Shown: in pieces, positions 15,029-42,770 of the stretch
Layout of the letters: every line of letters starts with the position of its first letter
Position numbering within the stretch: position 1 is the stretch's first letter
Source of the DNA: Vulcanimicrobiota bacterium
GTDB taxonomy: Bacteria > Vulcanimicrobiota > Xenobia > Xenobiales > JADMJV01
Direction: 5' to 3'
NCBI GenBank assembly: GCA_050250895.1
Contig: JBFWNU010000001.1
Location: forward strand, 3,459,247-3,523,246
Length of the DNA stretch: 64,000 bases
The notes under the pieces: generated by a model
The model's database searches: none
What the model was told of the DNA's origin: nothing
Seen by the model: only the letters and a program-made list of their open reading frames with translations
Made by a program: the position numbers and the translations under genes

Positions 15029-15118
15029 GGAGAGTTGGCCGAGCGGTTGAAGGCGGTGGTCTTGAAAACCACTTTGGGGGTAACCTCAACGGGGGTTCGA
15101 ATCCCTCACTCTCCGCCA
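15029..15118 (+). tRNA. tRNA-Ser (anticodon UGA), CCA encoded
   Basis: Acceptor GGAGAGT/ACTCTCC. Anticodon stem GTGGT/ACCAC with loop CTTGAAA (anticodon TGA). Long variable arm. T-arm GGGGGTTCGAATCCCTC. Discriminator G plus CCA. Confidence 0.92.
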
Positions 15119-15120
15119 TA

Positions 15121-15146
15121 AAAACCCCGAGCAATCGGGGTTTTTT
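15121..15146. terminator. Bidirectional rho-independent terminator
   Basis: AAAACCCCGA-gcaa-TCGGGGTTTTTT, with an A-run on one side and a T-run on the other. It lies between tRNA-Ser (+) and the end of the minus-strand sulfotransferase gene. Confidence 0.75.
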
Positions 15147-15160
15147 CGTGAGAGGGGGAT

Positions 15161-15955
15161 TCAAGTCCCCCGCAGTCGTATCGCGGTTTCTCGTTGCAAA
15201 CGCTTGGCCTGGGTCAGCAACCGATAATCCCAGGGAAAGTCATGCTCGACCCTGGCCTGAATGCTGGGCGTCAGAGACTGAAATTTGTCGACCACCTCGT
15301 CCTGGCGGGGGTGCTGCATGCCCAGTTGAACCGAGGCGCCGGCTACCCGGCGGCGGGTGTAGGCGAGGGGCAGGCCCATGCTCGAAAACAGGTGGGGCAG
15401 GTCGTGGTCGAGCGAATCGGCCAGACCCACGTACCAGCAGCGTTCCAGCAAGGCCAGCGCGGCGCGATACGCCTGTTCGCCGGCCAGGGCAAGCCCGGTA
15501 AATCGCCGAGCATAGAAGTCGCAGGCGCTACTGCGCGCCTGTTTGAGGAAGCAGTCGCCATACCACTGTTCGAAAGAGGCAACCGCCAGGCCCCGGCTGC
15601 GGGCGAAGTTGTAGCGGCTGACGCAGCGCTCGGCCGGGTCGCGCAGCACCGTAAAATAGCGGGCTTCTCGGCCGCCAAATCGTTGATGAATTCCATAGTA
15701 GGTCCGGTGCCCGCACAGCACTCGCACCTCGGCCAGTTCAGGGGCGGTCAAATCTTCAAATTGCGGTAGGCCGTGGTGCAGGCGATCTTGATAGCCCCAC
15801 TGGCCTAGATGAAATACCGCTCGATTCCATTCCAAGTGCTGCCAGAGGTGTCCGTTGATGGTCGTGCCGGCCGCCTTGGGCAGATGGAGAAAGACCCAAA
15901 GGACAGGCGCGCTAGTCGGCAAGGCCGACCCCGTCTTGAGCGAGCTCGAGAGCAA
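15161..15955 (-). CDS. Sulfotransferase (family-2-like)
   Basis: 5'-PSB-like FLHLPKAAGTTI and 3'-PB-like TVLRDPAERCVSRY. The ATG at 15955 overlaps the upstream gene by 44 nt; an alternative TTG sits at 15922. Confidence 0.75.
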   Translation of the reverse strand: MLSSSLKTGSALPTSAPVLWVFLHLPKAAGTTINGHLWQHLEWNRAVFHLGQWGYQDRLHHGLPQFEDLTAPELAEVRVLCGHRTYYGIHQRFGGREARYFTVLRDPAERCVSRYNFARSRGLAVASFEQWYGDCFLKQARSSACDFYARRFTGLALAGEQAYRAALALLERCWYVGLADSLDHDLPHLFSSMGLPLAYTRRRVAGASVQLGMQHPRQDEVVDKFQSLTPSIQARVEHDFPWDYRLLTQAKRLQRETAIRLRGT

Positions 15956-17753
15956 TGATAGAACTGGCGTGCATCAACTTGCCGATTCCCACCTCAGAGG
16001 TTTCCATGGCCGACAGAAGTTTGGCCACATTGATGTAGCGAAACGGATGTCGCTCGATTCCCTCGCTCCGCCATTGACGGGCCAGCAAAGCTAGCGCCTC
16101 GCGCACATCCTCCACCCCCTGTTGGGCGCGGACAGGTTCAGCCTTGCTGTTAAAGCGAATCGAGGCGGGCAAGAGTTCGGCCGCCCCAACGCGCATCAGC
16201 CAGCGCGTGACCCCGTCGCGGCAGAAAAGGCGGGGGGGTAGGGCCAGGCAAAACTCTAGAGCCCTCCGATCGAGCAAAGGATAGGCGTAGGCCACACCAT
16301 GCTCTCTGCCACTGGCATACCACTGTTCGAGCCGGGCGGTAGTGCCACCCTGGCGCAGCAGCTGCAGCTGGGTTTCGTGCACGCCGTAAGGCAGGACCCA
16401 GCGAGTGGGGTACCGTTCGCCCCTTCGACTCAGCTCTTCTCTGAGAAAAGGTGAAGGCTTACGGCTGGCGCCGAAGGCCAGCAAGTCGGAAAGATGGTGG
16501 CGCCAGCTTCTGGGGGCCCAGGGCAAGAGGCGATGGAACAGCAGTGGTAAGATGCCCCAGCGCGCGATCTGTTTCCAGGGTTTGCCCCGAGCGCATGCCT
16601 GACGATAACACTCGCGCCATTGGCCCCGCTTGAGCAGGCTGGCCAGCATGCCTCGTCCGTTGAACGAGAACCCCTCGTCACCGCCCCAACCCGACAAAAT
16701 GACCGGCAAACCCCGACGTTGGGCCTTTTGCTGAATGGCCAGTTCCGACACAAGGGCCCTCAAGGTGGGTTGGCAGGCGGGATTGCGACGAAAGAAGTCG
16801 GCCAGGGTCGAAGGGTCATGGCAGGTGGTCTCGAGCTGCATGCCCTCGCTTTCACAGAACTCGAGCAGGGTCTGGAACTCTTGTTCACCCCGGCACTTTT
16901 CGGTCAACCAGGTGAAGGCCAGCGGCGGCGCCAGGCCCTGACGACGACGGCTGCGCGCCGTGAGCGCCGCTACGGCTGACGAATCCAGGCCGCCGCTAGC
17001 GTGCACGGCCACGGCCGGGTAGCCCTGAATGCGATCCTCGACCACTCGCTCGAGCAGTTCTCTGGTGGCTACCAGGTAATCGTCGTCTTCGGCCAGTTGT
17101 AGCTCTGGCAGGTCGTCAGGCCGCCAATACCGAGTGAGACTCAATCCGGCCGCCGTCCATTTGAGGGTGTGGGCGGGTGGCACCTTGAAGATGTGCTCGT
17201 AAAAGGTGCGCTGCGGGTCGACGAAGGCTTTGCGGGAGAGGCTCGTGAGCAAATAGGTCTCGTCGAGCTGGGTCGACGCCTCGGTGGCCAGGAGGGCGCG
17301 CACATCGCTGGCCAGCAGAAAGGCCGTGCCGACGCGGCTGTAGTACAGAGGGCGGCTGCCGATATGATCTCGGCCACACAGCAACGCTTGAGTGCGCTGG
17401 TCCCATAGCGCGAAGGCGAAGTCTCCGTAGAGCTTGTTGGGAAAGGTTTCTTGCCAGTGATGATAGGCGGCCAGCATCGTCTGGCTGGGGTTTGGACTCT
17501 GGCCCCCGACCGAGACCGGACAATCCAAGCGGGCTTCGGCCACCAGGGCCGCTTTTTCATCGGCTACGGGTGAGGCGTTGGCGGCCTCGGGGCCGGTCTG
17601 GTGGAATTTGAGATAGCCCAGGGCAACTCCGGGAGCACACCAGCGGAAGGTGCCATGGGGACCAAAACCGAGCCCCAGAAGCCGTTGCAACATCGCCTCC
17701 AGGCGACCCTGACAGTCTCTGGCCACCGGGTCGACGACCGCCACGATGCCCAC
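15912..17753 (-). CDS. Asparagine synthetase B-like protein, candidate lasso peptide cyclase (C protein)
   Basis: 613 aa with a GTG start. The N-terminus GIVAVV lacks the catalytic Cys of true AsnB (MCGI). PP-loop VHASGGLDSSAVAAL. Sits next to a PqqD-family gene and a lasso-type precursor. Confidence 0.8.
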   Translation of the reverse strand: MGIVAVVDPVARDCQGRLEAMLQRLLGLGFGPHGTFRWCAPGVALGYLKFHQTGPEAANASPVADEKAALVAEARLDCPVSVGGQSPNPSQTMLAAYHHWQETFPNKLYGDFAFALWDQRTQALLCGRDHIGSRPLYYSRVGTAFLLASDVRALLATEASTQLDETYLLTSLSRKAFVDPQRTFYEHIFKVPPAHTLKWTAAGLSLTRYWRPDDLPELQLAEDDDYLVATRELLERVVEDRIQGYPAVAVHASGGLDSSAVAALTARSRRRQGLAPPLAFTWLTEKCRGEQEFQTLLEFCESEGMQLETTCHDPSTLADFFRRNPACQPTLRALVSELAIQQKAQRRGLPVILSGWGGDEGFSFNGRGMLASLLKRGQWRECYRQACARGKPWKQIARWGILPLLFHRLLPWAPRSWRHHLSDLLAFGASRKPSPFLREELSRRGERYPTRWVLPYGVHETQLQLLRQGGTTARLEQWYASGREHGVAYAYPLLDRRALEFCLALPPRLFCRDGVTRWLMRVGAAELLPASIRFNSKAEPVRAQQGVEDVREALALLARQWRSEGIERHPFRYINVAKLLSAMETSEVGIGKLMHASSIIALELAQDGVGLAD

Positions 17754-17857
17754 CTCAGCTCGCTCTCTTCGCCTGACGCATCCGCGCGTTTTTCCACGCC
17801 GCCTTGGCGGCTACCTTTGAACCAGGGTCTGGCACTCCGTGGGCGAATTGGCACAGC

Positions 17858-18136
17858 ATGACACAGTTGAAGCCGACCAGTATCGTAACGCCCAGTGAGA
17901 GCGTCGTGGCCACAGAATTAGATGGAGAGATCGTGATGATGTCGGTGGAATCGGGCAACTACTTCGGGCTCGACGCCATCGCCACCGATGTCTGGAAGTT
18001 GGTCGATGGTCAGCGCTCGGTGGCTCAGATCGTGGACCAGTTGTGCCAGGAGTATGAGGTGGACGGGCAAGAGTGCCTCGACCACGTGCTCGAGCTGTTC
18101 GAGCGGATGCACGAACAGGGTGTTATCAGGGCATAG
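17858..18136 (+). CDS. PqqD-family peptide chaperone (RRE, lasso B1-like)
   Basis: 92 aa from the first ATG: ELDGEIVMMSVESGNYFGLDAIATDVWKLVDGQRSVAQIVDQLCQEYEVD...LELFERMHEQGVI, a typical PqqD/RRE pattern. Confidence 0.82.
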   Translation: MTQLKPTSIVTPSESVVATELDGEIVMMSVESGNYFGLDAIATDVWKLVDGQRSVAQIVDQLCQEYEVDGQECLDHVLELFERMHEQGVIRA

Positions 18137-19019
18137 TCTTGCGGATGTGTCCCGTGATGGCGAACCGGTAGTGAGAAAACTCCGGGGCGCTGGGGAAGAC
18201 GGGGCGTAGCTCATGCAGGCGCGCGCTTGGAAAAACCAGTAGGGCGTTGTCGGTGTGGACGAAAGTGGTGAAGCCGACCGGGTCGCAATCGCCGCTGGTC
18301 GTGTCTTCGTCGTAGAGGCGAAATTCGCCGCCCTGGAAGCGAGCGGGGCCTAGCTCGAAGGTGTAGACGTAACTCAAGACCCGGTCGGGGTGCTGGCTGC
18401 TGCGGTCGCGGTGGATTGGAAAGGCACCTCCGGGTCCATAACCCGTAAGCTTTCCCTCGAACCGGGCGAGGTTGAACTTGGGCACGGCCAGGTTAACCCA
18501 ATGCTCGGCGCAGATCTCCTCGAGCTGGGTGCAAATCCAATCTCTGATACCCGCCAGCGGCTGGGACCTGGTTCGTCGAAAGGAATGGTCAGCCAGGCGA
18601 AGATGGCCGCTCTCGATGGGGGTGAACTGGTCAGGCTGAGCCTGCACGTAGTTTACAAGGGCCCCGTGCAGCTCGAGGGGGAGCCATTGTTGTCGGCGGT
18701 GGAATGGGGAGGGAGCAATACCCTGGAGGGGCGGTGGACAAGCCCCTTGCAGGATGCTGAGGGCGATCGCGTTGCGCACCTTGCGGGGGTCGGCCGCCAG
18801 GGCAGCCTGGTAGTATCGCTCGGCCTCGTCTAGTTGGCCGCTACACCGAGCCAGGTGGCCGCGCAATCCAAGCACGATGGCGGGGTCGCAGTCACGGTTC
18901 TGATCGAGCCAGGCGCCCGCCCTCGCGAAGTCGCCTTGGGCCAACAAGACCCGAAAGAATTCTCGGATGTCAGGTTTTGCGGTCAAGGGGCTGGCGTTTC
19001 TGGAAGAACTCCTGGCCAT
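18126..19019 (-). CDS. 2OG-Fe(II) oxygenase-like protein with N-terminal TPR-like segment
   Basis: HxD...H facial triad candidates (FPIHRD ... ARLHELRPV) and a GGEFRLYD jelly-roll motif. The N-terminus has one or two TPR-like units. ATG at 19019 is preferred because the longer track ORF overlaps the divergent kinase gene. Confidence 0.65.
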   Translation of the reverse strand: MARSSSRNASPLTAKPDIREFFRVLLAQGDFARAGAWLDQNRDCDPAIVLGLRGHLARCSGQLDEAERYYQAALAADPRKVRNAIALSILQGACPPPLQGIAPSPFHRRQQWLPLELHGALVNYVQAQPDQFTPIESGHLRLADHSFRRTRSQPLAGIRDWICTQLEEICAEHWVNLAVPKFNLARFEGKLTGYGPGGAFPIHRDRSSQHPDRVLSYVYTFELGPARFQGGEFRLYDEDTTSGDCDPVGFTTFVHTDNALLVFPSARLHELRPVFPSAPEFSHYRFAITGHIRKTMP

Positions 19020-19062
19020 CCTCCAGGAGGAGGTTGCAGCTTCGCAGGCGCAGGTGGGTCTC

Positions 19063-19884
19063 ATGGAGCATTGGTACACTTGCCACGGCTTGTTGATTCG
19101 TTCCGAGCTAGCTTTGCCAGAACTGCGCCAGGCCAATCCTGGTGAGACCGCGCTCTCGATTGTGCAGGGCCATCTTCCCCCCGGCCGCCCAGGTCGCCAG
19201 GTCGAGGAGCAATTGGCCACGCTGCGTATCCCCGGGGTGGCCAATCTTCGCATCGCCGAGGGTCGACAGATCACCGTCGAGTTGGCTCCGCGTGCTACAG
19301 TCGAGCAGGTGCGACCCTATCTGCTAGGCACGGGTCTGGCTGCCATCGTGCATCAGAGAGGACTGCTTCCTTTGCATGCCAGCGGCCTGCTAATGGATGC
19401 ACAGGGCGTTGTGCTGGCCGGAGTCAAGGGCAGCGGTAAGTCGACTTTGGCTGCCTACGGCTTGAGTTCGGGCTACCACCCTCTTTGTGACGACGTGGCC
19501 GTGATTCGATTCTCGCCAGCGCCCGAGATCGTCGCCGGGCCCGGTCGCCTCTGGTTAAACGACGATAGCCTCGAACAAGTGGGTCGCCGACCAAGCTGCG
19601 CGATCAACAAAGGACTCAAACGCGGCCTCGATTTTGAAGCTCGCGGGGCCTATTCGATGAGCAAGATCTTCATCCTGGACCCAAAATCAAGCCAATGTGT
19701 TCGCCTGCGAGGGCTCGAAGCACTCGGGGCTCTCCACAAGTGTACCTTCAGGAAGGGCTTCATCCCCGCGCGCGGCCATGTAGAACGGCTCTGCCACCTG
19801 TGCCGCCACGTGCCCGTCTATCGCTTGGGGCGAAGTGAGGTTTGGAGCCTGTCGGACCTGCTTACGCAGGCCATTCGCACCTAG
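19063..19884 (+). CDS. HPr kinase-related kinase (HprK-related kinase A/B type)
   Basis: Start MEHWYTCHGLLIRSELALPEL. LPLHASGL followed by P-loop GVKGSGKSTLAAYG and CDDVAVI. The start is inferred from the typical N-terminus of this family. Confidence 0.75.
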   Translation: MEHWYTCHGLLIRSELALPELRQANPGETALSIVQGHLPPGRPGRQVEEQLATLRIPGVANLRIAEGRQITVELAPRATVEQVRPYLLGTGLAAIVHQRGLLPLHASGLLMDAQGVVLAGVKGSGKSTLAAYGLSSGYHPLCDDVAVIRFSPAPEIVAGPGRLWLNDDSLEQVGRRPSCAINKGLKRGLDFEARGAYSMSKIFILDPKSSQCVRLRGLEALGALHKCTFRKGFIPARGHVERLCHLCRHVPVYRLGRSEVWSLSDLLTQAIRT

Positions 19885-20015
19885 CTCGCTCTATAGAAGG
19901 CACCATCCTGGTCTTCGATGTCATAAGGGCCACCCAGGGTTGCTGCCACTACCGGCACCGGTAGGAACTTGAACTCGGGTTTCGACCAGGGTTTCTTTTT
20001 TTTAGGGTCACTCAT
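19881..20015 (-). CDS. Candidate lasso-type RiPP precursor peptide (44 aa), not in the ORF track
   Basis: My translation: ATG at 20015, TAG at 19883-19881, giving MSDPKKKKPWSKPEFKFLPVPVVAATLGGPYDIEDQDGAFYRAS. Thr at -2, Gly1, Glu7/Asp8, bulky F13/Y14/R15 and a C-terminal Ser. It is the last gene of the minus-strand tailoring operon. Confidence 0.7.
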   Translation of the reverse strand: MSDPKKKKPWSKPEFKFLPVPVVAATLGGPYDIEDQDGAFYRAS

Positions 20016-20037
20016 GTGACCACACTTCGCGGTCGAT

Positions 20038-20694
20038 TTAGTCTACCCTCTGTAGCCAACAAAAACTGTCTTCGCCACCGCTTAGAGAGCGCGAATAGCC
20101 GAACCGGGAAAAATCGCGAGCGTAGAATTCACCTACCATCTGCTCGAGTTCGGCGTCGTAAGCTTCGAATCCGAGACCCGCCGAAGCATTCGCCCTCGGC
20201 AGTCCGTCGAAGGGTAGTTGCAGGCGGCCAAAGAGCCCGGCCAGGTCTTGCTCGAGGTGTTCGAAGCGGCAGACGACATCCACGGCCAGTTCGTCTTCGA
20301 TCAACAGGGTGTCGACCATAGGCCGCAGCAGGAGACGCGCCCACTTGTCCTGGCTTGAAACCAATCGTTTGAGGACTGACCTGGGATCCTCGGGCAGCGG
20401 GGTGTCTCGATACAAGAAGGCGGCCGCCGAGAGAAAACGGCTGTAAGGATTTCGAACCACCGCGAATTTCAGATACTCATCCCAGGGGGGCAAGAAGGGC
20501 CGCAACTGGGTAGCGCTGACATGCCCGTGCCGCAGTGCGGCCAGGGCCTGCACCGGCGCGCACCGTGGTCCGAAAAGCAGGCTCTGTTCCCAGTCGGTGG
20601 CGGCCAGATGCGGTCGCAGGCTTTGACGGATCGCGTGGGAAGCCGTGCGGGGGACGGCCAGAAAGATGAACTGGTGCCGGAACGAGACGATCAA
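20038..20694 (-). CDS. Sulfotransferase (family-2-like)
   Basis: FIFLAVPRTASHAIRQSL (5'-PSB-like), VVRNPYSRFLS (3'-PB-like), RFEHLEQDL. 4-nt overlap with the upstream gene. Confidence 0.75.
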   Translation of the reverse strand: MIVSFRHQFIFLAVPRTASHAIRQSLRPHLAATDWEQSLLFGPRCAPVQALAALRHGHVSATQLRPFLPPWDEYLKFAVVRNPYSRFLSAAAFLYRDTPLPEDPRSVLKRLVSSQDKWARLLLRPMVDTLLIEDELAVDVVCRFEHLEQDLAGLFGRLQLPFDGLPRANASAGLGFEAYDAELEQMVGEFYARDFSRFGYSRSLSGGEDSFCWLQRVD

Positions 20695-21509
20695 GGCTTG
20701 GGCACCAGGTAGCCAAACCTGGCCATGGTTTGGCCGTGTTCGCGTTCGAGCAGCTCTCTTTGAGCTTCATCCAAATGATTGCGGCCGTGGCCGGCTCGGC
20801 CGCTTCGAAAGAAGCTGCCGGAACGGTGCGGACCCTCTCGAAAACCGTCGGCTTGCTCTTGTGCTTGCAGACGATCGAAGGTGGAAAACTCGATAGCTCG
20901 GGCCACTCGTTGTTCTTCGCGCGGTTGGTTCAAAAACTCGAGCGCCGAACCAAAAGTCTGGTGAGGGTGAGCCAGCAGGTCTTCGTAGCGGATCACCAGC
21001 ACCCGAAGTTCGGCAGCCAACCAGCTCTCGACATGGCCACTCCAGCTGCCTACCAGTTCTGGGACCTGCAACCCACGATTGCCCTGAGCCAGGCGATAAC
21101 CGGGGTCGGCCATCCAGCCCGTCACCCGCGCGAGACTCGCGTTGCTGTGATGGGCAAACGAGACGGCCACGTCGTGTGGGTCGCGAACGAGGTAGATGAC
21201 TCCGAAGGTCGCCTCGGGGGGAAAGAGTCTCGGTTGATAGAGATCGTGAACCTTCAAAAAGAGCGGGTCGGTGGTCTGGGCGGCCAGGTGGCGGTAGGCG
21301 ATGGCCCTCCACTCGGGAAGTTCTTCCTCGGTAGCATCCGCCGTTTTTAGTTCCAGCGTGGCATCGAGCAACGCCCGACTGCTGCCCCAGGGTAAGGTGC
21401 CCAGCGCGTTGATCGAGACCGGCACTTTGGCCTGACTGAGATAGTTGGCTAGCAAGACCCTGAGCCAGGTATTGCCGGACTTGGGATACGAGGCAAGCCA
21501 AACGATCAA
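20691..21509 (-). CDS. Sulfotransferase (Sulfotransfer_1-like, aryl/cytosolic type)
   Basis: IVWLASYPKSGNTWLRVLL (PKSGTTW-type 5'-PSB) and IYLVRDPHDVAVSFAHH (RDPRDxxVS-type 3'-PB). Confidence 0.82.
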   Translation of the reverse strand: MIVWLASYPKSGNTWLRVLLANYLSQAKVPVSINALGTLPWGSSRALLDATLELKTADATEEELPEWRAIAYRHLAAQTTDPLFLKVHDLYQPRLFPPEATFGVIYLVRDPHDVAVSFAHHSNASLARVTGWMADPGYRLAQGNRGLQVPELVGSWSGHVESWLAAELRVLVIRYEDLLAHPHQTFGSALEFLNQPREEQRVARAIEFSTFDRLQAQEQADGFREGPHRSGSFFRSGRAGHGRNHLDEAQRELLEREHGQTMARFGYLVPKP

Positions 21510-22342
21510 GAACGAATCCTTTCTGCCAGTTCGGGCAACCGACCGGCCGGCACCCTGGCTCGCCAGAACTCGAGGTCAGAACCGGCCAAGTGACTCGCTT
21601 GACGAAAGTTCTCGCTCATCAGACCCAGGGCCCTCAGACCGGAGCGCGACGGAGTGTATCTGAGCAGAACTTCAAGGCCCTCGCGCCGACTCGACCGGGT
21701 GAGCGAGATTTGCTCGCCATTCCATAGACTGAGGTCATAGACACGTCGAACGAGCACGGGTGTGCCTGGTCGGGCCGGTTTCAGATGTCGCGCCAGGTTG
21801 GGCCGGCGGACCAACCAGTCAGAACCCCTGGGTCGTCCCAGGGTGATGTAGGGTGGGCCCGGCACGAGTCGATTTTCGGCCAGCACCACCAGTTCGTCAC
21901 TGATGAAATCGCAGCCCTGCTGATGCAGCAGATCGATGAGGGTCGACTTGCCCGCCCCGGAGATACCGACAAAGATCATGCCGCCACTTGGGCCGACCAC
22001 AGCGCTGGCCTGAAGGACCGCTCTGCCGGACAGAGTCAGCAGCACACCCAAGACATTCCCTAGAAGAAACGTCTCGATATCCTGACTGGTCACTTCTGCC
22101 TCGCTCTCGACGGTGACCTGATGGTTGGGGCGGATCAAGTATCTGGCCACTTTGGGCACGTGAAGGAGTAGCAGGCCGTCGCTGGTCTCCCAGAGCGGAC
22201 CGTGGCGGCGGCCGCCTGGCAGGCGTCGGGGTACGGGGCCGCGTCGGACCGTCCAATCGGGAGCGGTGTCGGTGGGAGTCAAGCGTTGGCTGGACCAATC
22301 CAGGCCCAGGGCCAGGCCAAAAGCGTTGTAGACTTCGAGCAT
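21506..22342 (-). CDS. Second HPr kinase-related kinase
   Basis: N-terminus MLEVYNAFGLALGLD, LQASAVV, P-loop GISGAGKSTLIDLL, SDELVVL. 4-nt overlap with the downstream sulfotransferase. Confidence 0.75.
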   Translation of the reverse strand: MLEVYNAFGLALGLDWSSQRLTPTDTAPDWTVRRGPVPRRLPGGRRHGPLWETSDGLLLLHVPKVARYLIRPNHQVTVESEAEVTSQDIETFLLGNVLGVLLTLSGRAVLQASAVVGPSGGMIFVGISGAGKSTLIDLLHQQGCDFISDELVVLAENRLVPGPPYITLGRPRGSDWLVRRPNLARHLKPARPGTPVLVRRVYDLSLWNGEQISLTRSSRREGLEVLLRYTPSRSGLRALGLMSENFRQASHLAGSDLEFWRARVPAGRLPELAERIRS

Positions 22343-22354
22343 CGGTGCGCCTCG

Positions 22355-23179
22355 CTAGCCGCGCAACCGGTAGCCAAAGTTTGCCAGCAGGGCCTCACAC
22401 TCGCCGTAGACCCGGTTGAGTGTCGCCAGATCCTCGCCACTCAAGCGCCCCCACTGTTGCTCGTTCATGTTGCGCAAGGGCTCATCATAGCTTCCTTTGA
22501 CCGGTAGCTGCTGGCGCAGGTCGAGGTCGGCCAGTTGCGGCATCAAGCCGGCGATCTGGGCTTGCACCTGTTGAGGTCGGTCGCACATGTCTTCATAGCT
22601 AAAGAATGTCCCCAGATGGCCATAGCGGCGGAGATTCTCGGCTTGCGCCTCGAGACAAAGGGCCAGGTGGAGAGCGGCCAGAGCCAGGCGCTCCTGACGT
22701 TCGTAACCCGCCAGGCAAAGGCGGCGCGAGATTCCTTCGGCGGTCGCATACGGGTCGCGAACCATGAAAAGGAAGCGAGCATCCGAGAAGCTGTCCACCA
22801 GTTGGTCGACGAGCAGGAGAAAGGGCGGAGACTTCTCGACGAAGACGGTCGCCCCGGCGCTCCGTGAGAAGGCCTGAAAATACCAGGCTCGGCGAGTGGT
22901 CACCCAGTCAAAGTTGGCAGGGTTCTGAAAGGCAGCGACCCATTGTGGCCTGGTGGCCCAGATGGTGGCCGCGCCGAGGGCGCGCGAACTCGGACCGGCG
23001 AAGCCGAAAGTGTGTTGGCCTTCGCGGGGCAGGTTCCAGGTGGCCCGACTGGTGGCCAGAGCGTTTCGCAAGAATGTGCTGCCGCTATTGTTAGGGCAAA
23101 TGACAAAGAGATGATGCTCGACCAGAGTGGGCAGGTCGGCAAGCGCCCCTCGGAAGATCTTGGTGGCCCCGGATTTCAA
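22355..23179 (-). CDS. Sulfotransferase (third sequence type)
   Basis: LFVICPNNSGSTFLRNAL (P-loop-like 5'-PSB) and FLFMVRDPYATAEGISRR (3'-PB-like). Confidence 0.7.
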   Translation of the reverse strand: MKSGATKIFRGALADLPTLVEHHLFVICPNNSGSTFLRNALATSRATWNLPREGQHTFGFAGPSSRALGAATIWATRPQWVAAFQNPANFDWVTTRRAWYFQAFSRSAGATVFVEKSPPFLLLVDQLVDSFSDARFLFMVRDPYATAEGISRRLCLAGYERQERLALAALHLALCLEAQAENLRRYGHLGTFFSYEDMCDRPQQVQAQIAGLMPQLADLDLRQQLPVKGSYDEPLRNMNEQQWGRLSGEDLATLNRVYGECEALLANFGYRLRG

Positions 23180-24105
23180 AGCTCGGATAGGTTGGCCTCA
23201 GGGAAGGTCGTCGTGGCCGGGTTTCGGTTTTGGCCCGAATCCCCCCTGCTCGAGCTGTCGTGGGGGCGCACCCTTAGAGCTTGCAGGTGGGTGGACGCGT
23301 CTAGAAAGCTGCGCTGCCAACGAGCCCAGCAGTGGAGAAACCTTGGCGAGGCCAGCCCTCGCCAGAGGGCCGAACTGGACCATGGCTTGACCGGAGTATT
23401 GTAATGCAAGACCCTGGCCTGGAGCCAGGAAATACCGCTGTGGGCCGAGATGGTCTGGGCGTGGAGTAGTAGATAATTGAATTCACAGCCGACCAGGGTT
23501 TGCTTGCCCTGGAGCAGCCGATTGAGAACCAGTTGGTCGGTGTGCGGTTGCTCGACGCCGGACCAGGTGTCGGGCCTCAGCAAACCCAGCGCCGCCTGAT
23601 AGGTTGATGGTTCGAATTGGCTCGGATCGACCACCATGAATCCCGAGTTGAAGGTGTTCTTCAAGCTGCCGCCGGCCAGCGGCGAGTAGGTCACCGGGTC
23701 GCGAGGCAGACCTCGGTAGTAGGCACCGTCTCCGGCACAAAGGAGGGGACCCGTGTGGTCCAGGACGGGCTCGATCGAATCAAGAAAGAGCAGGTCGCTG
23801 TCGCAGAAGAACAGGCGTTCATAGCGGGTCCACCGGAAGAGTTCCAAAGAATAGAAACGAGCCTTGCGATCGTTTAACTCAGGCCGAGCCAGGACCAACT
23901 CGCCCACCTGTGCTTGAAGTTCGCGGCTGACCGGCACCAACCGGGCCCCGGTAGCTTTTTCGAGCAATCTGCGCGAAGAACCGGGCAGACGGTGATGCAG
24001 CACCAGGATGTCTCCGCCGAACCAGGGGTTATGGCGGCGGAAGGAGTGGAGCATCACCAACGTGCCTAGCACAAAGCTCTGACTGGTGACGGTAATCAGG
24101 GCCAT
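23176..24105 (-). CDS. Glycosyltransferase family 8-like
   Basis: ITVTSQSFVLGTLVMLHSF, DxD (FFCDSDLLFLD), FNSGFMVVD. Start MALITV at 24105 is preferred; alternatives at 24120 and 24162. Confidence 0.72.
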   Translation of the reverse strand: MALITVTSQSFVLGTLVMLHSFRRHNPWFGGDILVLHHRLPGSSRRLLEKATGARLVPVSRELQAQVGELVLARPELNDRKARFYSLELFRWTRYERLFFCDSDLLFLDSIEPVLDHTGPLLCAGDGAYYRGLPRDPVTYSPLAGGSLKNTFNSGFMVVDPSQFEPSTYQAALGLLRPDTWSGVEQPHTDQLVLNRLLQGKQTLVGCEFNYLLLHAQTISAHSGISWLQARVLHYNTPVKPWSSSALWRGLASPRFLHCWARWQRSFLDASTHLQALRVRPHDSSSRGDSGQNRNPATTTFPEANLSEL

Positions 24106-24197
24106 TCGCGAATGGGCCATAGGGTCAGGTTGGCTGGAAGCGGCCTTCGTCCCTTTGAACAACCGGGCAGCGATTCTGCAATCAGGGCGGTTAGACC

Positions 24198-24311
24198 TCA
24201 GCTCATCGCTTCGGAGATCTGGTTTTCGATCAGCCAGATGAGAATAGGATCCGGCCGGGTCGGGACTTCTAGACCCTGGTTACTGAATTGGTCCGTGCCA
24301 AGAACAAACAT
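24198..24311 (-). CDS. Small ORF (37 aa) with SD; speculative second peptide
   Basis: AGGAGG, 4 nt, then ATG at 24311: MFVLGTDQFSNQGLEVPTRPDPILIWLIENQISEAMS, ending in Ser. It is the first ORF of the minus-strand operon. No family recognised and it could be spurious. Confidence 0.25.
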   Translation of the reverse strand: MFVLGTDQFSNQGLEVPTRPDPILIWLIENQISEAMS

Positions 24312-28009: not shown

Positions 28010-28335
28010 TTCCACCGGGCGATCGCCGCCCCTGGCCTTGGCCAGCCCGCTGGCCGTGCCCCAACCGGGGTGGGCGAAATCCCCCAGCCGGGGTGGGCGA
28101 TCGCTGGCCTGGGCCAGCCCGCCAGCCGTGGCCCCACCCGGAGTGGGCGAAATCCCCCAGCCGGAGTGGGCGATCGCTAGCCTTGGCCAGCCCGCCAGCC
28201 GTGGCCCCACCCGGAGTGGGCGAAATCCCCCAGCCGGGGTGGGCGATCGCTGGGCTTGACCACGGCCGGTGGCCGTGGCCCCACCCGGGGTGGGCGAAAT
28301 CCCCCAGCCGGAGTGGGCGATCGCTGGCTCCCGCG
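28010..28335. repeat. Intergenic tandem repeat, about 73-bp unit, 4-5 copies, each carrying GGGCGATCGC
   Basis: The GGGCGA(TCGC) anchor recurs at 28017, 28095, 28168, 28241 and 28315. GGGCGAAATCCCCCAGCCGG recurs at 28072, 28145, 28218 and 28292 (periods 73, 73, 74). Each unit is an internal duplication of about 36 bp. Confidence 0.9.
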
Positions 28336-28430
28336 AAAAGCCGGAGCAAGCCGGGTCTGGCGGCGGGCGTGCTCCCGCGAAATGCCGGAGTAAACCGGAC
28401 CACGGCCCCGGCTCCCGCGAAATCCCGGAG
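28327..28430. repeat. Three copies of GCTCCCGCGAAAnnCCGGAG spaced 40-44 bp
   Basis: Copies start at 28327, 28371 and 28411. Confidence 0.8.
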
Positions 28431-37215: not shown

Positions 37216-38341
37216 GTTCGTGACCCCAATCCTGGTCGGTCCACAGGTGCGATTCGGCTGCCCTCCGAGCCTGCTCGGTCAGAGCCAGGACGCGGGCTTC
37301 GAGCCATTGATCGGGGAGAGAATCGGTCTGGTTTTCTAGCAAGGCGTGGGCCAGCCAGACATAACTGCTGGGACACCGTTTGAGGTTGAGGGTGCGGGCG
37401 TGCATGGTGCCGGTCGCGGCCAGTACGGTGGGCGGACAGCCCCACAGAGACATCAGATACTGGCTGGCCAATCGAGCGGTTTGGGGATCCGAGCCCAGCG
37501 CCTCATCAAGCAGCGGGTTGGCGCGCTGCAAGTGGATCGGCATCTCGGTGAGGCGGGCGGCCACCCAGGTCGTTCGGAGCTCGGAGAGTCCGAGCCCGTC
37601 CAGCCGCGCCAGGCGGGGGGCCAGCCAGCAGAGGGCGCGGGTGGGCTGACCACACGGTCGAGCACGGCAGTCGGTGGGCCGGTCGGGGGTGCCGGAGAGG
37701 AAGGCCCGCAAAGGCTCTAAGGCCAGAGCCTCGCGCAGACCCGCCTGATAGCCAAGCTCGCGAGGATGACCCAGGAAATAGGTGTTGAAGATGCGCAGGA
37801 GCTGGCAGTAGAGTCCCAGATCGTCGTGGGCGATGAGGGCCAGAGACTCGAGATTTGGACTGGTCCGGCTCAGCTCCTGAGAGAAGCTCTCGAGAGTCTC
37901 GGGATGACACGGCAGGTCTCTTAGCCCGCACAGTTCGGAGCGCACAGCGGGGGGAAGCTGGTCACCCAGCTCAAACGCCGTCTCGAGGCTGGCCACCAGC
38001 GCTTCCATCTGACACGGCTTGGTCCAGAACTGGTGGAGATATTCGGCTGAGTCGGCCAGTCTTCGGGTCTCGCTATAGCCTGACAGGCCGACTCTGAGAC
38101 CGGACGGGTCGATTCCGTGAACTCGTCGCACCAGTTCGGCTCCATCCATGCCGGGCATTCGCATGTCGGACACGATGGCGTCATAACTCTCTTGGGCGTG
38201 GGCATCGAGAGCTTGAGGACCGCTGGTCACGAAGTCGAAGGTCCAGCCGGGTCGGCAGCGACGAAGCACGCGCCGCAGGCCGCCAAGGATGTTCAGTTCG
38301 TCGTCAACAAATAGCAGGCGTTTTGGGGTCATAGCACTCAC
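37208..38341 (-). CDS. Response regulator with C-terminal HDOD-like helical domain
   Basis: Receiver region: LLFVDDE, IVSDMRMPGMDG, FWTKP. The C-terminal 230 aa resemble HDOD-type output domains; that part of the call is tentative. Confidence 0.7.
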   Translation of the reverse strand: MSAMTPKRLLFVDDELNILGGLRRVLRRCRPGWTFDFVTSGPQALDAHAQESYDAIVSDMRMPGMDGAELVRRVHGIDPSGLRVGLSGYSETRRLADSAEYLHQFWTKPCQMEALVASLETAFELGDQLPPAVRSELCGLRDLPCHPETLESFSQELSRTSPNLESLALIAHDDLGLYCQLLRIFNTYFLGHPRELGYQAGLREALALEPLRAFLSGTPDRPTDCRARPCGQPTRALCWLAPRLARLDGLGLSELRTTWVAARLTEMPIHLQRANPLLDEALGSDPQTARLASQYLMSLWGCPPTVLAATGTMHARTLNLKRCPSSYVWLAHALLENQTDSLPDQWLEARVLALTEQARRAAESHLWTDQDWGHERG

Positions 38342-38394: not shown

Positions 38395-40230
38395 ATGAGA
38401 GGTGCCATGAATAGCCCCGCCCGAGCAGAACTCGAGCATCGGCGACGTGAGCTCTACCGTCAGGCCCGCCACGAGGTCCAGGCCAGGACCGATCGGATGT
38501 TCGCGCGGTTGATGTGCCTTCAATATGGGGCCGGAATTCTGGCCGTGCTCTGGCTGAGCCCGTACACCTGGTATGGGACGACGGCCCGGGTCCACCTGCA
38601 TGTATTGGCCACCCTCTTCCTGGGAGCTTTGCTGGCCGCTCCTCCGGTCTGGCTGGCCTGGCGCCGAGCCGGACGCTACTCGACCCGAATGGTCATCGCC
38701 GCCTGCCAGATGCTCTTCTCGGCCCTGCTCATCCACATCACTGGCGGTCGCATCGAGACCCACTTCCATGTCTTTGGCTCGCTGGCGTTCCTTTCGTTTT
38801 ATCGAGACTGGCGGGTCTACGTTCCGGCCACGCTGGTGGTGAGCCTCGATCATCTGGTTCGAGGCCTCTACTATCCGCTGTCGGTGTTCGGGGTGGCTGA
38901 CGCCAGTCATTGGCGCTGGCTCGAGCACGCGGCCTGGGTCATGTTTTGCGTGTTCTTCCTGGTTCGCTCGGTGCGCGAGACGCGCCAGGAGATGATGCAG
39001 ATCGCCGACCAGCAGGCCAGGTTGGAGCACACCAACCTGCTGATCGAGTCCGAAGTCAGGCACCGAACCATCGAATTGGCCGGCGAACGCTTGCGCTTTC
39101 TCAGCGCTTTCGAAAACGCTCCCATCGGCATGGCCATCGTGGCCGTGAACGGAGCCCTGCTGAGGGTCAATCAGGAGTTCTGCCGAGTGCTTGGCTATCG
39201 TGCCGAAGAGTTGACCGGACGCCAGCTGCAAAGCCTGGTGCCCGGCGACAGGGAGCACCCCGAACTCGGCTCGGCGGGGCGCGGAGAGTTTCGGGTGACC
39301 TATGTCGAGCAGCAGGGAGCCGAGGTAGAGTTAAGCTGCCACGCTAGCTACCAGGCCGGCTCGGAGCACCAGATGGCCCATTTCATCGTCCAGTTTCTAG
39401 ATATCACCGAGCGGGTTCGGGCGGCTCGTCTGATGTTAGAGCAAGAGCAACGGACCCAACTGGCCCAGAAGCTCGAGTCCCTGGGTATCCTGGCCGGCGG
39501 GATCGCCCACGAGCTGGCCACGCCGATCCAGTATATCGGAGACAACGCCAACTTCCTGGAAGACCTTTTCCGGAGCGAGATTACTCAGTTGCTGGCCGCC
39601 TACCAGCCAACCGGGGAGGGCGCCATCGATATCGATTTTCTGCGCGAGGAGATGCCCGCTGCCCTGGCTCAGATCGGCGAGGGGGTAGAGCGGGTGAGTA
39701 GCATCGTTCGTTCGATCAAGGAATACGCTCACAACCGCGAGGGCGACGGGGGGCCGGTGGACCTCAACGAGCTTATAGAGAACACCATTACGATGTCCCG
39801 CAACGAGTGGAAGTACATCGCTGAGGTCGAAGTTGACCTGGCCTCGCAGCTGCCCTCGGTGGTGGCCGATCGAAGCGGGCTTGCTCAGGTCTTTCTCAAC
39901 CTTCTGGTCAACGCCGCCCACGCGGTCGAAGACGTGTTCAAAGCCACCGAGCGTAGAGGCCTGATCAAGGTCTCGACCGCGTGCTGCCAGAACGGCGTCG
40001 AGGTTCTCTTTCAGGATACAGGACCAGGGGTGCCGCCAGAAATCGCCAGCCGCATCTTCGACCCCTTCTTCACCACCAAGGATGTCGGTCGCGGAACAGG
40101 GCAGGGGCTGTCGATTTCGAGCAACATTCTCAAAGCCCACGGTGGCTGTCTCGAGCTGGTCGACAGCAGCCGGCAAGGCAGTTGCTTCCGCGTCTGGCTT
40201 CCCCTCACTTCCCTTCAGGAAGTGGCCTGA
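38395..40230 (+). CDS. Membrane sensor histidine kinase (multi-TM N-terminus, PAS, HisKA, HATPase)
   Basis: Five or six N-terminal TM helices. PAS (APIGMAIVAVNGALLRVNQEFCRVLGY). H-box GGIAHELATPIQYI. N box LLVNAAHA. G boxes DTGPGV and GTGQGLS. Confidence 0.85.
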   Translation: MRGAMNSPARAELEHRRRELYRQARHEVQARTDRMFARLMCLQYGAGILAVLWLSPYTWYGTTARVHLHVLATLFLGALLAAPPVWLAWRRAGRYSTRMVIAACQMLFSALLIHITGGRIETHFHVFGSLAFLSFYRDWRVYVPATLVVSLDHLVRGLYYPLSVFGVADASHWRWLEHAAWVMFCVFFLVRSVRETRQEMMQIADQQARLEHTNLLIESEVRHRTIELAGERLRFLSAFENAPIGMAIVAVNGALLRVNQEFCRVLGYRAEELTGRQLQSLVPGDREHPELGSAGRGEFRVTYVEQQGAEVELSCHASYQAGSEHQMAHFIVQFLDITERVRAARLMLEQEQRTQLAQKLESLGILAGGIAHELATPIQYIGDNANFLEDLFRSEITQLLAAYQPTGEGAIDIDFLREEMPAALAQIGEGVERVSSIVRSIKEYAHNREGDGGPVDLNELIENTITMSRNEWKYIAEVEVDLASQLPSVVADRSGLAQVFLNLLVNAAHAVEDVFKATERRGLIKVSTACCQNGVEVLFQDTGPGVPPEIASRIFDPFFTTKDVGRGTGQGLSISSNILKAHGGCLELVDSSRQGSCFRVWLPLTSLQEVA

Positions 40231-42085
40231 GATAGGTCTCGAGAAACAGGACCACGGCCTGCAAATAGGCGTCGCGGTTGTCTTTCTTCTTGAACCCGTG
40301 CCCTTCGTCGCGGGCCATGAGATACCATACCTGCCCCCCCTGGCGACGGACCTCGGCCACCATCTGTTCTGACTCGGTGACCGGCACTCGAGGGTCGTTG
40401 AAGCCCTGGACCACCAGTAGCGGGGCGCGAATGGACGAGGCTCTGGTGGTCGGCGAGATGGCGGTGAGAAAGCGGCGCATCTCGGGGTCTCGCTCGTCAC
40501 CGTACTCGACCCGCCTGCGGTCGCGCCGATAGTCCTGGGTGTTCTCGAGGAAGGTGACGAAGTTGCTGATGCCCACCACATCGATGCCCGCGGCCAGCCG
40601 GTCGGGAAAGTGAATCAAGCTGGCCAGCACCATATAGCCTCCGTAGGAGCCGCCATAGACGGCCACTTGTCTGGCATCGAGTTCGGGTTGAGCGGCTATC
40701 CAGTCGAGCAGGGCTCCGATATCCTTGACCGAGTCTTCGCGGCTGCGGCCGTCGTCGAGCTTGAGGTAACTTTTGCCGTAGCCCCGAGAGCCCCGCACGT
40801 TGGGGGCCACCACGGCCAGTCCCATTTCGTTGACCAGATACTGGATGGTGGAAGAAAAGGCTGGAGTGAACTGGCTCTCGGGTCCGCCGTGGATGAGCAC
40901 CACCGTCGCGAACGGTCCCTGGCCGCTCGGTCGATAATAGAAAGCGGGGATGCGACGCTGGTCAAAGCTGGCGAACTCCACCAGGCTGGGCGACACGAAG
41001 CGGGCCGTGTCTAGCCCCCCGACCTCGCTGTGGGTCCAGGCCTGCACCCGGTTGGTCGCCAGGTCATAGACGTAGACATCTCCCGGGCTGGTGGCGGCGT
41101 CGGCTGAAAAGGCCAGCTTCTTTCCATCGGGAGAAAAGCGAAGATTGCCCATCGTCCCGAGCGGCGTGTCTTTGACTTCGATGATCTCGCCGCTCTGGCG
41201 GTCGAGCAGATAGAGGTGGTCGATGCCCCCCTGATTGACCAGATAGGCCACCCGGTCCGCCGTGGCCTCGACCTCGGTGACGTCCCAGGGTCGGTCGAAG
41301 AACTGTAGCCGGCCGGCCTGATATCGCACCAGGCGCAGAAACTCGTGGTCGCGGTCGCTGGTGAAATAGAGCGAATCACCGGCGAAGGCGGCCGAGCCAT
41401 GGGCCACCTCGCCGGGTCCGCCGTCAACCTCGACCAGTTTGCCGCTGGCCAACTCGAGCAGGTACAGGTCGGAGTCGTTGGCCGACTGGTAGCGGCGCAA
41501 CAGCAGCTGGCGGTCGTCGGGCGACCAGGCCATCGGCATGAATGACCCTTCGGCCTGATAGACCAGCTGGCGTTGGCCGTCGGGAGTGGCCGTGTAGATG
41601 TCCCAGTCTTTGCCGTTGCGAGCCGTGCCGTAAAAGGCTATGCGATCGCCGCTGTGAGACCAGACGGGGTTACCGTGGCGAGCCTTGCCATCGGTCAATT
41701 GCCGGCTCTGGCCGCTGTCGAGGTCGAGGTAGAAGAGCTGATAAAACTCGCCGCCTCCCACATCCTTGAGAAAGACCAGCCCATGCCCGCCGGCCGGACG
41801 CACCACCGCCCCGGCCACCGGTTCGTCGAAGAAGGTCAACTGGGTGCGAGCCGCGCCCGGGCCGGCCACGTGATGCAACTGGTTGGTCTGGCCAAAGCGG
41901 GTCAGTACGATCACCCCGCCGGCGGTCGGGTCCCAGTCGCATAGGCTGGCGGAGCGCGTTTCGCTATACTGGCGCAGCCGTTGGGCCACCTGGTCGGGAA
42001 TGGGAGGGATCCCTTCGCGCACCAGGTTGCCGTCGTCGGCCACGGCGGCCAGGGTCAAGAGCAGAAACAGACAAAGCCATCGCAT
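40205..42085 (-). CDS. S9 family serine peptidase (beta-propeller plus prolyl-oligopeptidase-type alpha/beta hydrolase)
   Basis: Signal peptide MRWLCLFLLLTLAAVA (ATG at 42085). WSPDG-type propeller repeats. Nucleophile motif GGSYGGYM. C-terminal HGF. Confidence 0.85.
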   Translation of the reverse strand: MRWLCLFLLLTLAAVADDGNLVREGIPPIPDQVAQRLRQYSETRSASLCDWDPTAGGVIVLTRFGQTNQLHHVAGPGAARTQLTFFDEPVAGAVVRPAGGHGLVFLKDVGGGEFYQLFYLDLDSGQSRQLTDGKARHGNPVWSHSGDRIAFYGTARNGKDWDIYTATPDGQRQLVYQAEGSFMPMAWSPDDRQLLLRRYQSANDSDLYLLELASGKLVEVDGGPGEVAHGSAAFAGDSLYFTSDRDHEFLRLVRYQAGRLQFFDRPWDVTEVEATADRVAYLVNQGGIDHLYLLDRQSGEIIEVKDTPLGTMGNLRFSPDGKKLAFSADAATSPGDVYVYDLATNRVQAWTHSEVGGLDTARFVSPSLVEFASFDQRRIPAFYYRPSGQGPFATVVLIHGGPESQFTPAFSSTIQYLVNEMGLAVVAPNVRGSRGYGKSYLKLDDGRSREDSVKDIGALLDWIAAQPELDARQVAVYGGSYGGYMVLASLIHFPDRLAAGIDVVGISNFVTFLENTQDYRRDRRRVEYGDERDPEMRRFLTAISPTTRASSIRAPLLVVQGFNDPRVPVTESEQMVAEVRRQGGQVWYLMARDEGHGFKKKDNRDAYLQAVVLFLETYLRPLPEGK

Positions 42086-42134
42086 GGCCGGCTCCTTCGC
42101 AGGAACCCCCTCATCCTCTTGCCAAGAGCCTGGC

Positions 42135-42770
42135 ATGCCGCCAATCGAACGCGTGCTCACCCGTGACGGCTCGGTGACTTATCGCCACCTCGAGCTGGGG
42201 GTGACCTATCGCTCGCTGGGTGGGGCCAGCGCCGAGTCTGACCATGTCTTCGTGCAGGGGACCGGCCTGCCGGCTCGCCCCGGCCCCTGGCGGGTGCTCG
42301 AACTGGGCTTTGGCAGCGGGCTCAACTTCGCCCGCACGCTGGCTCACCTGGACGGCCGCCGCCTCGACTATCTCAGCTGCGAACCGGACCCCCTCGACCC
42401 CCAGTTGTGGCTGGTGCCGGCCGTGTGGCAAGACCCCGCCGTCGAGCAGGTGGGCGAGGTGCGCCGCCGCCTGGCCGGTCGCTGGCAAGAGTGCCAGCTG
42501 GCCAGCAACTATTTCCATGCCTACTTTCACGACCCGTTCGCCCCGCGCACCGCCCCCGATTGCTGGACGGCTGAGTGCTTTGCCTGGGCGGCCCGGGCTC
42601 TCACCCCGGACGGTGTGCTGGCCACCTATGGCGCTTCGACCGCCGCCCGCCGCGCCATGGCCGAGGCGGGGCTGGCGGTGGGGGTGTTACCCGGAGCCGG
42701 CGGCAAGCGCGAGATGACGGTGGCCTCGCGCTGCCCCACAGCCATCGCTCGGGCCCGGAGGTGGCCGTGA
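42135..42770 (+). CDS. MnmC-like SAM-dependent methyltransferase domain protein (DUF752-type)
   Basis: VLELGFGSGLNF motif I and AYFHDPFAPRTAPDCWT (DGFxP-type motif). ATG at 42135; the track extension to 41883 overlaps the divergent peptidase. Confidence 0.75.
   Translation: MPPIERVLTRDGSVTYRHLELGVTYRSLGGASAESDHVFVQGTGLPARPGPWRVLELGFGSGLNFARTLAHLDGRRLDYLSCEPDPLDPQLWLVPAVWQDPAVEQVGEVRRRLAGRWQECQLASNYFHAYFHDPFAPRTAPDCWTAECFAWAARALTPDGVLATYGASTAARRAMAEAGLAVGVLPGAGGKREMTVASRCPTAIARARRWP

Follow-up and report, generated by a model that had tools for sequence, protein, structure and literature searches.

How does a lasso peptide gene cluster operate when the peptidase that should remove its leader is not encoded beside it? 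This question is raised by a gene cluster at positions 15161-24162 of a 64-kb stretch of DNA from a Vulcanimicrobiota bacterium (contig JBFWNU010000001.1, positions 3,459,247 to 3,523,246), hereafter the window, meaning the whole of that stretch. An initial annotation, made from the sequence by itself, described a lasso-type cluster with an AsnB-like cyclase (C), a PqqD-family RRE protein (B1), and a precursor peptide (A), together with kinases, sulfotransferases, a glycosyltransferase, and an oxygenase. It noted no B2 leader peptidase, exporter, or isopeptidase. Our analysis leans toward a functional, heavily tailored lasso cluster whose B2 would be encoded elsewhere on the chromosome, probably together with an NTP_transf_5 nucleotidyltransferase (NTP5) and an exporter. 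Since the absence of a local B2 is common among related loci, and since distant NTP5-B2 genes or, in one case, a shorter member of the same protein cluster occur in six related chromosomes matched by size, a B2 encoded in trans is the best explanation for what the window contains.

Cyclase, recognition element, precursor, and kinases

Judged by its sequence, the AsnB-like enzyme is best described as a macrolactam synthetase without a glutaminase nucleophile. It has 610 aa as called, or 613 aa if translated from the longest start. Among NCBIfam models it fits the lasso isopeptide cyclase NF033535 best, and although the score of 243 bits falls under the curated cut-off (525), a complete canonical cluster from Pontixanthobacter gangjinensis (locus L006) has a cyclase that likewise reaches only 238 bits. 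The ATP-binding motif SGGLDS is kept, and the GATase-like N-terminal domain (PF13537, residues 90-156) is inactive. The protein starts with MGIVAVV or MAVVDP and has no Cys2. Because an in-frame stop lies 19 codons upstream, no earlier start can give the cyclase an N-terminal Cys, which excludes the genuine asparagine synthetase with a Cys at another start that the initial annotation had named as grounds for abandoning its reading. Asparagine synthetase B was also rejected on its score (156 bits on TIGR01536, against a cut-off of 267) and on the missing Cys nucleophile. Among family cyclases, an alignment of N termini revealed that many begin with MSAICG(I/V), that is, the MCGI of AsnB plus three preceding residues. 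The Cys of those enzymes is thus not N-terminal, and the window enzyme lacks it altogether. The closest cyclase homologue is 37% identical, and in a neighbor-joining tree the window cyclase stands alone on a long branch.

The remaining core components appear equally typical. For the B1 protein, the best model is the lasso PqqD chaperone NF033536, at 73.8 bits against a cut-off of 80; the L006 PqqD scores 62.8. PF05402 identifies it clearly as a PqqD-like RRE. With NF033535 and NF033536 as best models and a clear match of the precursor to its family profile (Table 1), the lasso interpretation of the AsnB-like enzyme, the PqqD protein, and the precursor stands. By these measures, cyclase, RRE, and precursor resemble lasso components just as closely as their counterparts in a complete canonical cluster do.

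The precursor consists of a leader, MSDPKKKKPWSKPEFKFLPVPVVAATL, followed by a 17-residue core, GGPYDIEDQDGAFYRAS. The leader carries a W-x-x-P (aromatic-x-x-Pro) motif and a Thr at position -2. The core begins with Gly1, contains Glu7 and Asp8, the latter within a conserved D-Q-D, has no Lys, and ends in FYRAS. The peptide thus appears to combine the leader and core layout of a lasso precursor with the C-terminal Ser of the kinase-associated type. A hidden Markov model (HMM) seeded with six such peptides found 87 relatives beside homologous cyclases. These relatives share K(K/R)PW(S/A)KP and a Thr-x-Gly/Ser junction, and most of them end in Y-x-x-S; the window precursor is typical of this large family. 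Its core closely parallels cores from loci that do contain B2, namely, GGSFDPNDQDDSFYTVS (L018), GGIGDVDDQDDLFYVVS (L073), and GGAGDKDDQDDIFYTKS (L026). Asp8 is invariant in these 17-mers and is therefore the likely ring acceptor. Furthermore, the window precursor retains two features that serve the B1/B2 route, the Thr at -2 and the RRE-binding motif. In some related loci (L051, L041, L015, L012, and L027), two to four precursor genes stand in tandem, identical in leader and different in core.

Two proteins of the cluster, K1 and K2, qualify on sequence as HprK-like kinases of the paeninodin/pseudomycoidin type. Searched with phmmer against the kinase of the canonical L006 cluster, K1 gave E=6e-13 and K2 gave E=9e-12, and both Walker A motifs are intact. 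K1 also weakly matched the HPr(Ser) kinase 3tqf in the PDB (E=0.047), and K2 adjoins the sulfotransferase ST1, which is the canonical kinase position. Together with the precursor, these features place the cluster, as far as its genes can tell, in the kinase-associated lasso family whose precursors end in Ser. The initial annotation had instead compared its composition to the HPr-rel-A system. The two are alike in having HprK-related P-loop proteins alongside a protein of the PqqD family; any relationship would be a distant one, and the label does not hold. K1 reaches 31.5 bits on TIGR04352 and 23.8 bits on TIGR04355, and K2 reaches 21 and 28.2 bits, respectively; both models have a cut-off of 200. 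The L006 kinase is equally distant from the HPr-rel-A model (19 bits). In addition, no HPr-rel-A PqqD model was among the matches of the PqqD protein, all of which were lasso, SCM, and PQQ models.

Absence of B2, exporter, and nucleotidyltransferase from the window

We built a B2 HMM iteratively from 32 B2 proteins of related loci, in whose alignment H-A-W and the catalytic Cys are invariant. Run against all stop-to-stop open reading frames (ORFs) of at least 40 aa in the six frames of the whole window, it found no B2; its best match (E=0.12) lies at 37365-37646, antisense inside a response-regulator gene. A regular-expression scan for HAW[VLIMT]-type motifs found none in any of the six frames, and Pfam found nothing in 10 alternative-frame ORFs of the cluster. 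Nor is there space for a hidden gene of 130 aa, because the cluster genes abut or overlap. Profiles based on the L006 ABC exporter, NTP_transf_5, and Asp/Arg hydroxylase had no homologue in the window. With the B2 HMM, the motif scan, Pfam, and the exporter profiles all negative, the initial annotation's observation is confirmed, and its finding that no isopeptidase is encoded nearby likewise stands. The window thus encodes no B2 (PF13471 or NF033537), and it also lacks the PsmN-like NTP_transf_5 protein and the ABC exporter that are frequent, but not universal, in clusters of the kinase type.

Two candidates for a missing function were considered and rejected. A B2 hidden or broken by a frameshift, which the initial annotation had allowed for, was dismissed on the negative results of the motif scan, the B2 HMM, and Pfam. 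An S9 peptidase gene at 40205-42160 on the minus strand could have encoded a lasso isopeptidase or leader peptidase. Its best matches in the PDB, which are acylaminoacyl peptidases, and its distance of 16 kb from the cluster speak against both roles.

Related loci and the location of B2

The genome scan yielded 79 fetched loci, with the window's own genome not among their sources; homologue searches covered 86 loci in all, and 82 nonredundant loci were counted. B2 was found within 10 kb of the cyclase in 32 loci, which also carried PqqD (31), kinase (30), ABC (24), NTP5 (24), the family-8 glycosyltransferase GT8 (19), the sulfotransferase ST3 (18), and a fusion of TPR and 2-oxoglutarate oxygenase domains (TPR-2OG; 0). 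The corresponding counts for the 50 loci without B2 within 10 kb were PqqD 13, kinase 34, ABC 8, NTP5 4, GT8 34, ST3 35, and TPR-2OG 15. When only loci with full 10-kb flanks were considered, 43 of 61 lacked a B2 within that distance, and 7 of these 43 kept PqqD. The arrangement of the window, with PqqD present and B2 absent, is therefore represented by seven full-flank loci from several phyla. In the neighbor-joining tree, most loci without B2 belong to an expanded clade of uncultured Gammaproteobacteria and Binatia, in which a chromosome carries several paralogous loci.

The gene order of the window has counterparts among these relatives. Locus L006 contains B2, NTP_transf_5, ABC, ST3, Asp/Arg hydroxylase, kinase, ST1, PqqD, precursor, cyclase, and GT8. 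The order kinase-ST1-PqqD-A-cyclase-(ST2)-GT8-ST3 is common to the window and L006-type loci; adjacency of kinase and ST1 is conserved in the family, and ST2 follows the cyclase in many related loci. The precursor family is shared as well, since L006 and other loci of Sphingomonadales, Acidobacteriota, and cyanobacteria have the W-x-x-P leader, a Thr-x-Gly-Gly junction, and the Y-x-x-S end. The differences are that L006 carries B2 (NF033537, 60 bits), NTP_transf_5, ABC, and the Asp/Arg hydroxylase within 8 kb, whereas the window has none of the four, and that the window cyclase is only about 31-37% identical to L006-type cyclases. The occurrence in L006 of the same tailoring set together with B2, NTP_transf_5, and ABC supports the view that the window cluster is functional and has its B2 elsewhere.

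The TPR-2OG family often adjoins an HprK-like gene. The pair of TPR-2OG and an extra HprK-like gene recurs only where both B2 and the Asp/Arg hydroxylase are absent (L012, L021, L025, L041, L064, and L082, and the window at 18126-19884). This pattern suggests that TPR-2OG and its kinase form a tailoring module that replaces the PF05118 hydroxylase.

Evidence that B2 can be encoded at a distance comes from chromosomes that hold more than one cyclase locus. On OY282460.1 and on OZ241332.1, one locus with B2 is accompanied by one to three without it. When the NTP5-B2 fusion of L015 was used in a homologue search and the cluster members were listed, homologues were found on contigs of 5675689, 5069597, 3746347, 3825434, 5089713, and 5732555 bp. 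These sizes equal those of six chromosomes, matched in this way by size, whose fetched loci all lack B2; the member on the 5732555-bp contig has only 390 aa and may be too short for a B2 domain. On OY282353.1, an NTP5-B2 and ABC hub lies at 3.25 Mb beside a further cyclase, and five loci without B2 lie at 0.13, 0.97, 2.27, 4.12, and 5.11 Mb. Within the expanded clade, leaders are nearly identical between loci with and without B2, for example, DAPKKPWAKPTIRTVDGEVRSG, and such leaders fit a single B1/B2 pair serving many cyclases. Of the options that the initial annotation had left open, a protease encoded elsewhere is the one favored by this comparative evidence.

The layout of hub and satellites was seen for L021, L029, L039, L040, L085, and L087, all on OY282353.1, and also on OY282455.1, OY282519.1, and OZ251505.1. 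Chromosomes with satellites carry four to six or more paralogous cyclase loci, each with its own tailoring genes and its own precursors, whose leaders are nearly identical from satellite to satellite, and without PqqD or B2, and the single NTP5-B2 fusion and ABC locus lies megabases away at least in OY282353.1. Another fusion of NTP_transf_5 and B2 is an orphan (L086, 10001-11560) whose neighbors are transposases and unrelated genes; no lasso gene lies within 10 kb of it. We rejected L086 as a piece of the window's own genome: its GC content is 70%, against 63.5% for the window, blastn found no match, and its tetranucleotide correlation with the window is 0.77, compared with 0.98 between the two halves of the window.

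Comparison with known lasso systems

The closest characterized systems are paeninodin from Paenibacillus dendritiformis, pseudomycoidin from Bacillus pseudomycoides, and polyphosphorylated proteobacterial lasso peptides (Sphingobium yanoikuyae). Like the window, they have an AsnB-like cyclase, a PqqD B1, an HprK-like kinase, and a C-terminal Ser on the precursor. Their clusters also encode B2, often fused to or beside NTP_transf_5, and an ABC exporter, none of which is present in the window. In their place, the window carries a pair of kinases, four sulfotransferases, a GT8, and a TPR-2OG oxygenase. In lasso clusters, HprK-like kinases act on the linear precursor, where they phosphorylate the C-terminal Ser; those from proteobacteria attach several phosphates, and sulfotransferase genes have been noted beside some kinase-associated lasso clusters (PMC8498205). 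Our literature searches that included sulfotransferase turned up no paper on a sulfated lasso peptide, though "sulfated lasso" as such was not a search term.

Clusters without a leader protease have also been described. That of Stanieria cyanosphaera PCC 7437, noted by Zyubko et al. in 2019, likewise lacks a leader protease and combines a cyclase and a precursor with a PsmK-like kinase and a recognizable glycosyltransferase (PMC6993621). The two are likened by description only, and the Stanieria cluster is described as having no B proteins altogether, whereas the window keeps B1. The triculamin pathway of Streptomyces, which has been studied experimentally, is similar in that a lasso forms without B1 or B2 genes in the cluster (bioRxiv 10.64898/2026.07.03.736388). 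However, the triculamin core is N-terminal and is accompanied by a C-terminal follower peptide, and its cyclase is truncated, without the N-terminal domain. In the window, an N-terminal leader occurs together with an RRE and a full-length cyclase that includes a GATase-like domain.

The initial annotation implied that the cluster might represent an uncharted system. That implication needs to be scaled back, given that lasso HprK-like kinases have been characterized (PMC8498205) and that routes without B proteins have been reported (PMC6993621; bioRxiv 10.64898/2026.07.03.736388). With precedent for such routes and for distant B2 genes alike, the finding is less exceptional than proposed. What is new here is that B1 is kept, that B2, exporter, and NTP5 are locally absent, and that the tailoring set is unusually rich, all within the kinase-associated lasso family.

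Proposed pathway and alternative explanations

Under the reading that B2 is encoded elsewhere, biosynthesis could proceed as follows. The PqqD/RRE protein would bind the 44-aa precursor through the W-x-x-P motif of its leader. On the still linear peptide, the hydroxyl of the C-terminal Ser may be phosphorylated by one of the HprK-like kinases or by both, as can be extrapolated from PadeK and PsmK. The GT8, the four sulfotransferases, and the TPR-2OG oxygenase might then add sugar, sulfate, and hydroxyl groups; candidate acceptors are the conserved Tyr four residues from the end and the Asp-rich stretch. A B2 cysteine protease from outside the window, its gene probably beside or fused with NTP_transf_5 and accompanied by an ABC exporter, would cut the leader after Thr-Leu. 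Finally, the AsnB-like cyclase would adenylate the side chain of Asp8, or possibly Glu7, and join it to the amine of Gly1, giving a 17-residue lasso. These chemical steps, like the presence of B2 elsewhere in this genome, are what we infer from the genes and from better-known relatives.

Several observations limit the case for a distant B2. The window, which reaches 15 kb past the left end of the cluster and 40 kb past its right end, contains no B2, ABC exporter, or second cyclase. In the B2 profile search, no protein from the window's 3.95-Mb chromosome was among the 120 listed of 750 matches. The hub-and-satellite precedent comes from distant relatives, because the window cyclase is isolated at no more than 37% identity. 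Furthermore, pseudomycoidin, whose cluster is of the same kinase-associated type and includes a nucleotidyltransferase, has been produced in Escherichia coli and Bacillus subtilis without B1 and B2, even from the core and PsmC alone (PMC6993621). Together with the absence of B2 from all 64 kb, the cyanobacterial cluster that pairs cyclase, precursor, kinase, and glycosyltransferase without B proteins, and the seven full-flank loci that keep PqqD in the absence of B2, this result lends some weight to true independence from B2, which we hold to be a tentative second choice. In that case, housekeeping peptidases would remove the leader and the cyclase would act alone, the RRE having been repurposed to offer the linear precursor either to the tailoring enzymes (kinases, sulfotransferases, and GT8) or to the cyclase. 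The tendency of B2, NTP5, and ABC to go missing together, evident in the counts given above (ABC in 8/50 and NTP5 in 4/50 loci without B2, against 24/32 each with it), points the same way. Yet the native pseudomycoidin cluster does encode B1 and B2, the window retains the Thr at -2, the full leader motif, and the RRE, and each of the six size-matched chromosomes carries an NTP5-B2 cluster member, with the 390-aa protein on the 5732555-bp contig counted among them. It is slightly more doubtful that the source genome has no B2 of any kind, with the RRE kept to guide tailoring and cyclization and with general proteases or an unrecognized activity removing the leader.

Other explanations would do away with the peptidase in different ways. 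The concerted absence of B2, NTP5, and ABC, which usually travel together, could mean that the locus is a decaying or incomplete remnant, perhaps a fragment acquired beside a tRNA-Ser gene without the B2/NTP5/ABC module, and that mature lasso peptide is no longer made. The tRNA gene (15029-15118) flanks the cluster directly, and no flanking gene is conserved beside related clusters. We nevertheless consider decay improbable: the eleven genes are intact and are translationally coupled or closely spaced, their GC content at third codon positions (GC3; 0.68-0.78) is like that of neighboring genes, overall GC content is the same as in the surroundings, and no att-like direct repeat of the tRNA end was detected. 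Distinctly improbable, in our estimation, is that the AsnB-like enzyme catalyzes a different reaction on a precursor that still has its leader, such as amidation of Asp/Glu or of the C terminus, or formation of a lactam from Lys to Asp/Glu, for which no protease would be needed. Its score under the NF033535 cut-off and a window with neither protease nor exporter would fit this idea, but the canonical L006 cyclase scores no better, the core has no Lys, the Cys nucleophile for glutamine-dependent amidation is absent, and Gly1 after Thr-Leu with an invariant Asp8 is the geometry expected of a lasso ring. The least probable explanation, to which we give very little credence, is that leader cleavage has passed from B2 to another protein of the cluster, with K1, the TPR-2OG oxygenase, STa, and the 37-aa ORF as candidates. 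The restriction of the TPR-2OG family and its adjacent kinase copy to loci without B2 (15/50, against 0/32) is what recommends it. However, phylogeny confounds that association, since one expanded clade accounts for most cases. The cluster proteins match nonprotease folds (P-loop kinase, sulfotransferase, GT-A, and 2OG oxygenase), none has an extra domain of about 130 aa, and, as a matter of general enzymology, oxidative cleavage by a 2OG enzyme would leave no free amine.

Gene content and flanking sequence

The gene calls of the initial annotation were reproduced by the ORF listing, Pfam, and NCBIfam, which agreed on coordinates and strands, and by an independent gene call made on a Logan contig with the same DNA (Table 1). 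Two members deserve comment. The sulfotransferase-like STa, which matches its Pfam family marginally, has homologues in 11 related loci, including some that contain B2, and a GC3 of 0.73. At the head of the tailoring operon, a 37-aa ORF with a GC3 of 0.63 encodes a product whose last residue is Ser. None of the 86 fetched loci contains a homologue, and the product is no match for the precursor HMM (E=0.24). The ORF may encode a second substrate or serve as a leader ORF, if it has any role.

Table 1. Genes and open reading frames of the cluster, with coordinates in the window
Feature	Position	Strand	Evidence and remarks
STa, sulfotransferase-like, 264 aa	15161-15955	-	PF00685 21.9 bits (cut-off 22), marginal; PAPS-loop-like PKAAGTT
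Predicted lasso macrolactam cyclase (C), AsnB-like	15912-17753	-	PF00733 90 bits; PF13537 63 bits; NF033535 243 bits
PqqD-family RRE (B1), 92 aa	17858-18136	+	PF05402 74.8 bits (cut-off 23.4); ORF opens at 17804
TPR + 2OG-FeII_Oxy_3 oxygenase, putative hydroxylase, 297 aa	18126-19019	-	PF13640 41.7 bits; TPR_2
HprK-like P-loop kinase K1, 273 aa	19063-19884	+	TIGR04352 31.5 bits; ScmC 28.5 bits; Walker A GVKGSGKST
Precursor peptide A, 44 aa	19881-20015	-	Family precursor HMM, E=3.5e-12
Sulfotransferase ST2, 218 aa	20038-20694	-	PF03567 31.3 bits
Sulfotransferase ST1, 272 aa	20691-21509	-	PF00685 94.8 bits
HprK-like P-loop kinase K2, 278 aa	21506-22342	-	TIGR04355 28.2 bits; Walker A GISGAGKST
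Sulfotransferase ST3, 274 aa	22355-23179	-	PF13469 40.4 bits
Family-8 glycosyltransferase GT8, 314 aa as called	23176-24120	-	PF01501 50.9 bits; ORF reaches 24162
37-aa ORF, MFVLGTDQFSNQGLEVPTRPDPILIWLIENQISEAMS, membership uncertain	24198-24311	-	Strong AGGAGG ribosome-binding site 4 nt 5' of ATG

The left end of the cluster abuts the tRNA-Ser gene (anticodon TGA, plus strand), which is followed by a terminator-like hairpin (the two together at 15029-15146). One possibility is that the cluster lies on an island inserted at the tRNA gene; the search for an att-like direct repeat of the tRNA-Ser end covered 14.9 to 30 kb and found none. Flanking genes were rejected as cluster members, with no homologue of the 660-aa TPR protein, the 412-aa Pro/Gly-rich protein, the AraC regulator, the methyltransferase, or the 107-aa ORF in any related locus. 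Farther away, the window holds GC-rich tandem repeat arrays at 28032-28350 (73-nt period, about 4 copies), 59415-60147 (71 or 50 nt, about 7.6 copies), and 60268-60505 (44-107 nt), which generate long spurious ORFs with repetitive translations. Two adjacent genes on the minus strand at 54437-56837 resemble, by eye and from their translations only, a pyridoxal phosphate-dependent decarboxylase and an ATP-grasp protein; many two-component regulator genes surround them, and nothing evident links them to the cluster.

Implications

Whether or not the source genome encodes a B2, the cluster has consequences for how lasso pathways are found and understood. If B2 lies elsewhere, genome mining that requires A, B, and C side by side would miss many loci of this cyclase family, as the 43 of 61 full-flank loci without a nearby B2 illustrate, and the cluster would still point to an uncharacterized, densely decorated lasso peptide. 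If instead the genome has no B2, the cluster and the other loci that keep PqqD without B2 would represent a natural lasso pathway without a dedicated leader peptidase, and the product may be a lasso peptide with phosphate, sugar, and sulfate decorations, a combination not yet described. Such a genome would also be a natural test case for why canonical pathways need a complex of RRE and peptidase, a question raised by the work on pseudomycoidin and triculamin, and for the role that an RRE can play without a protease.

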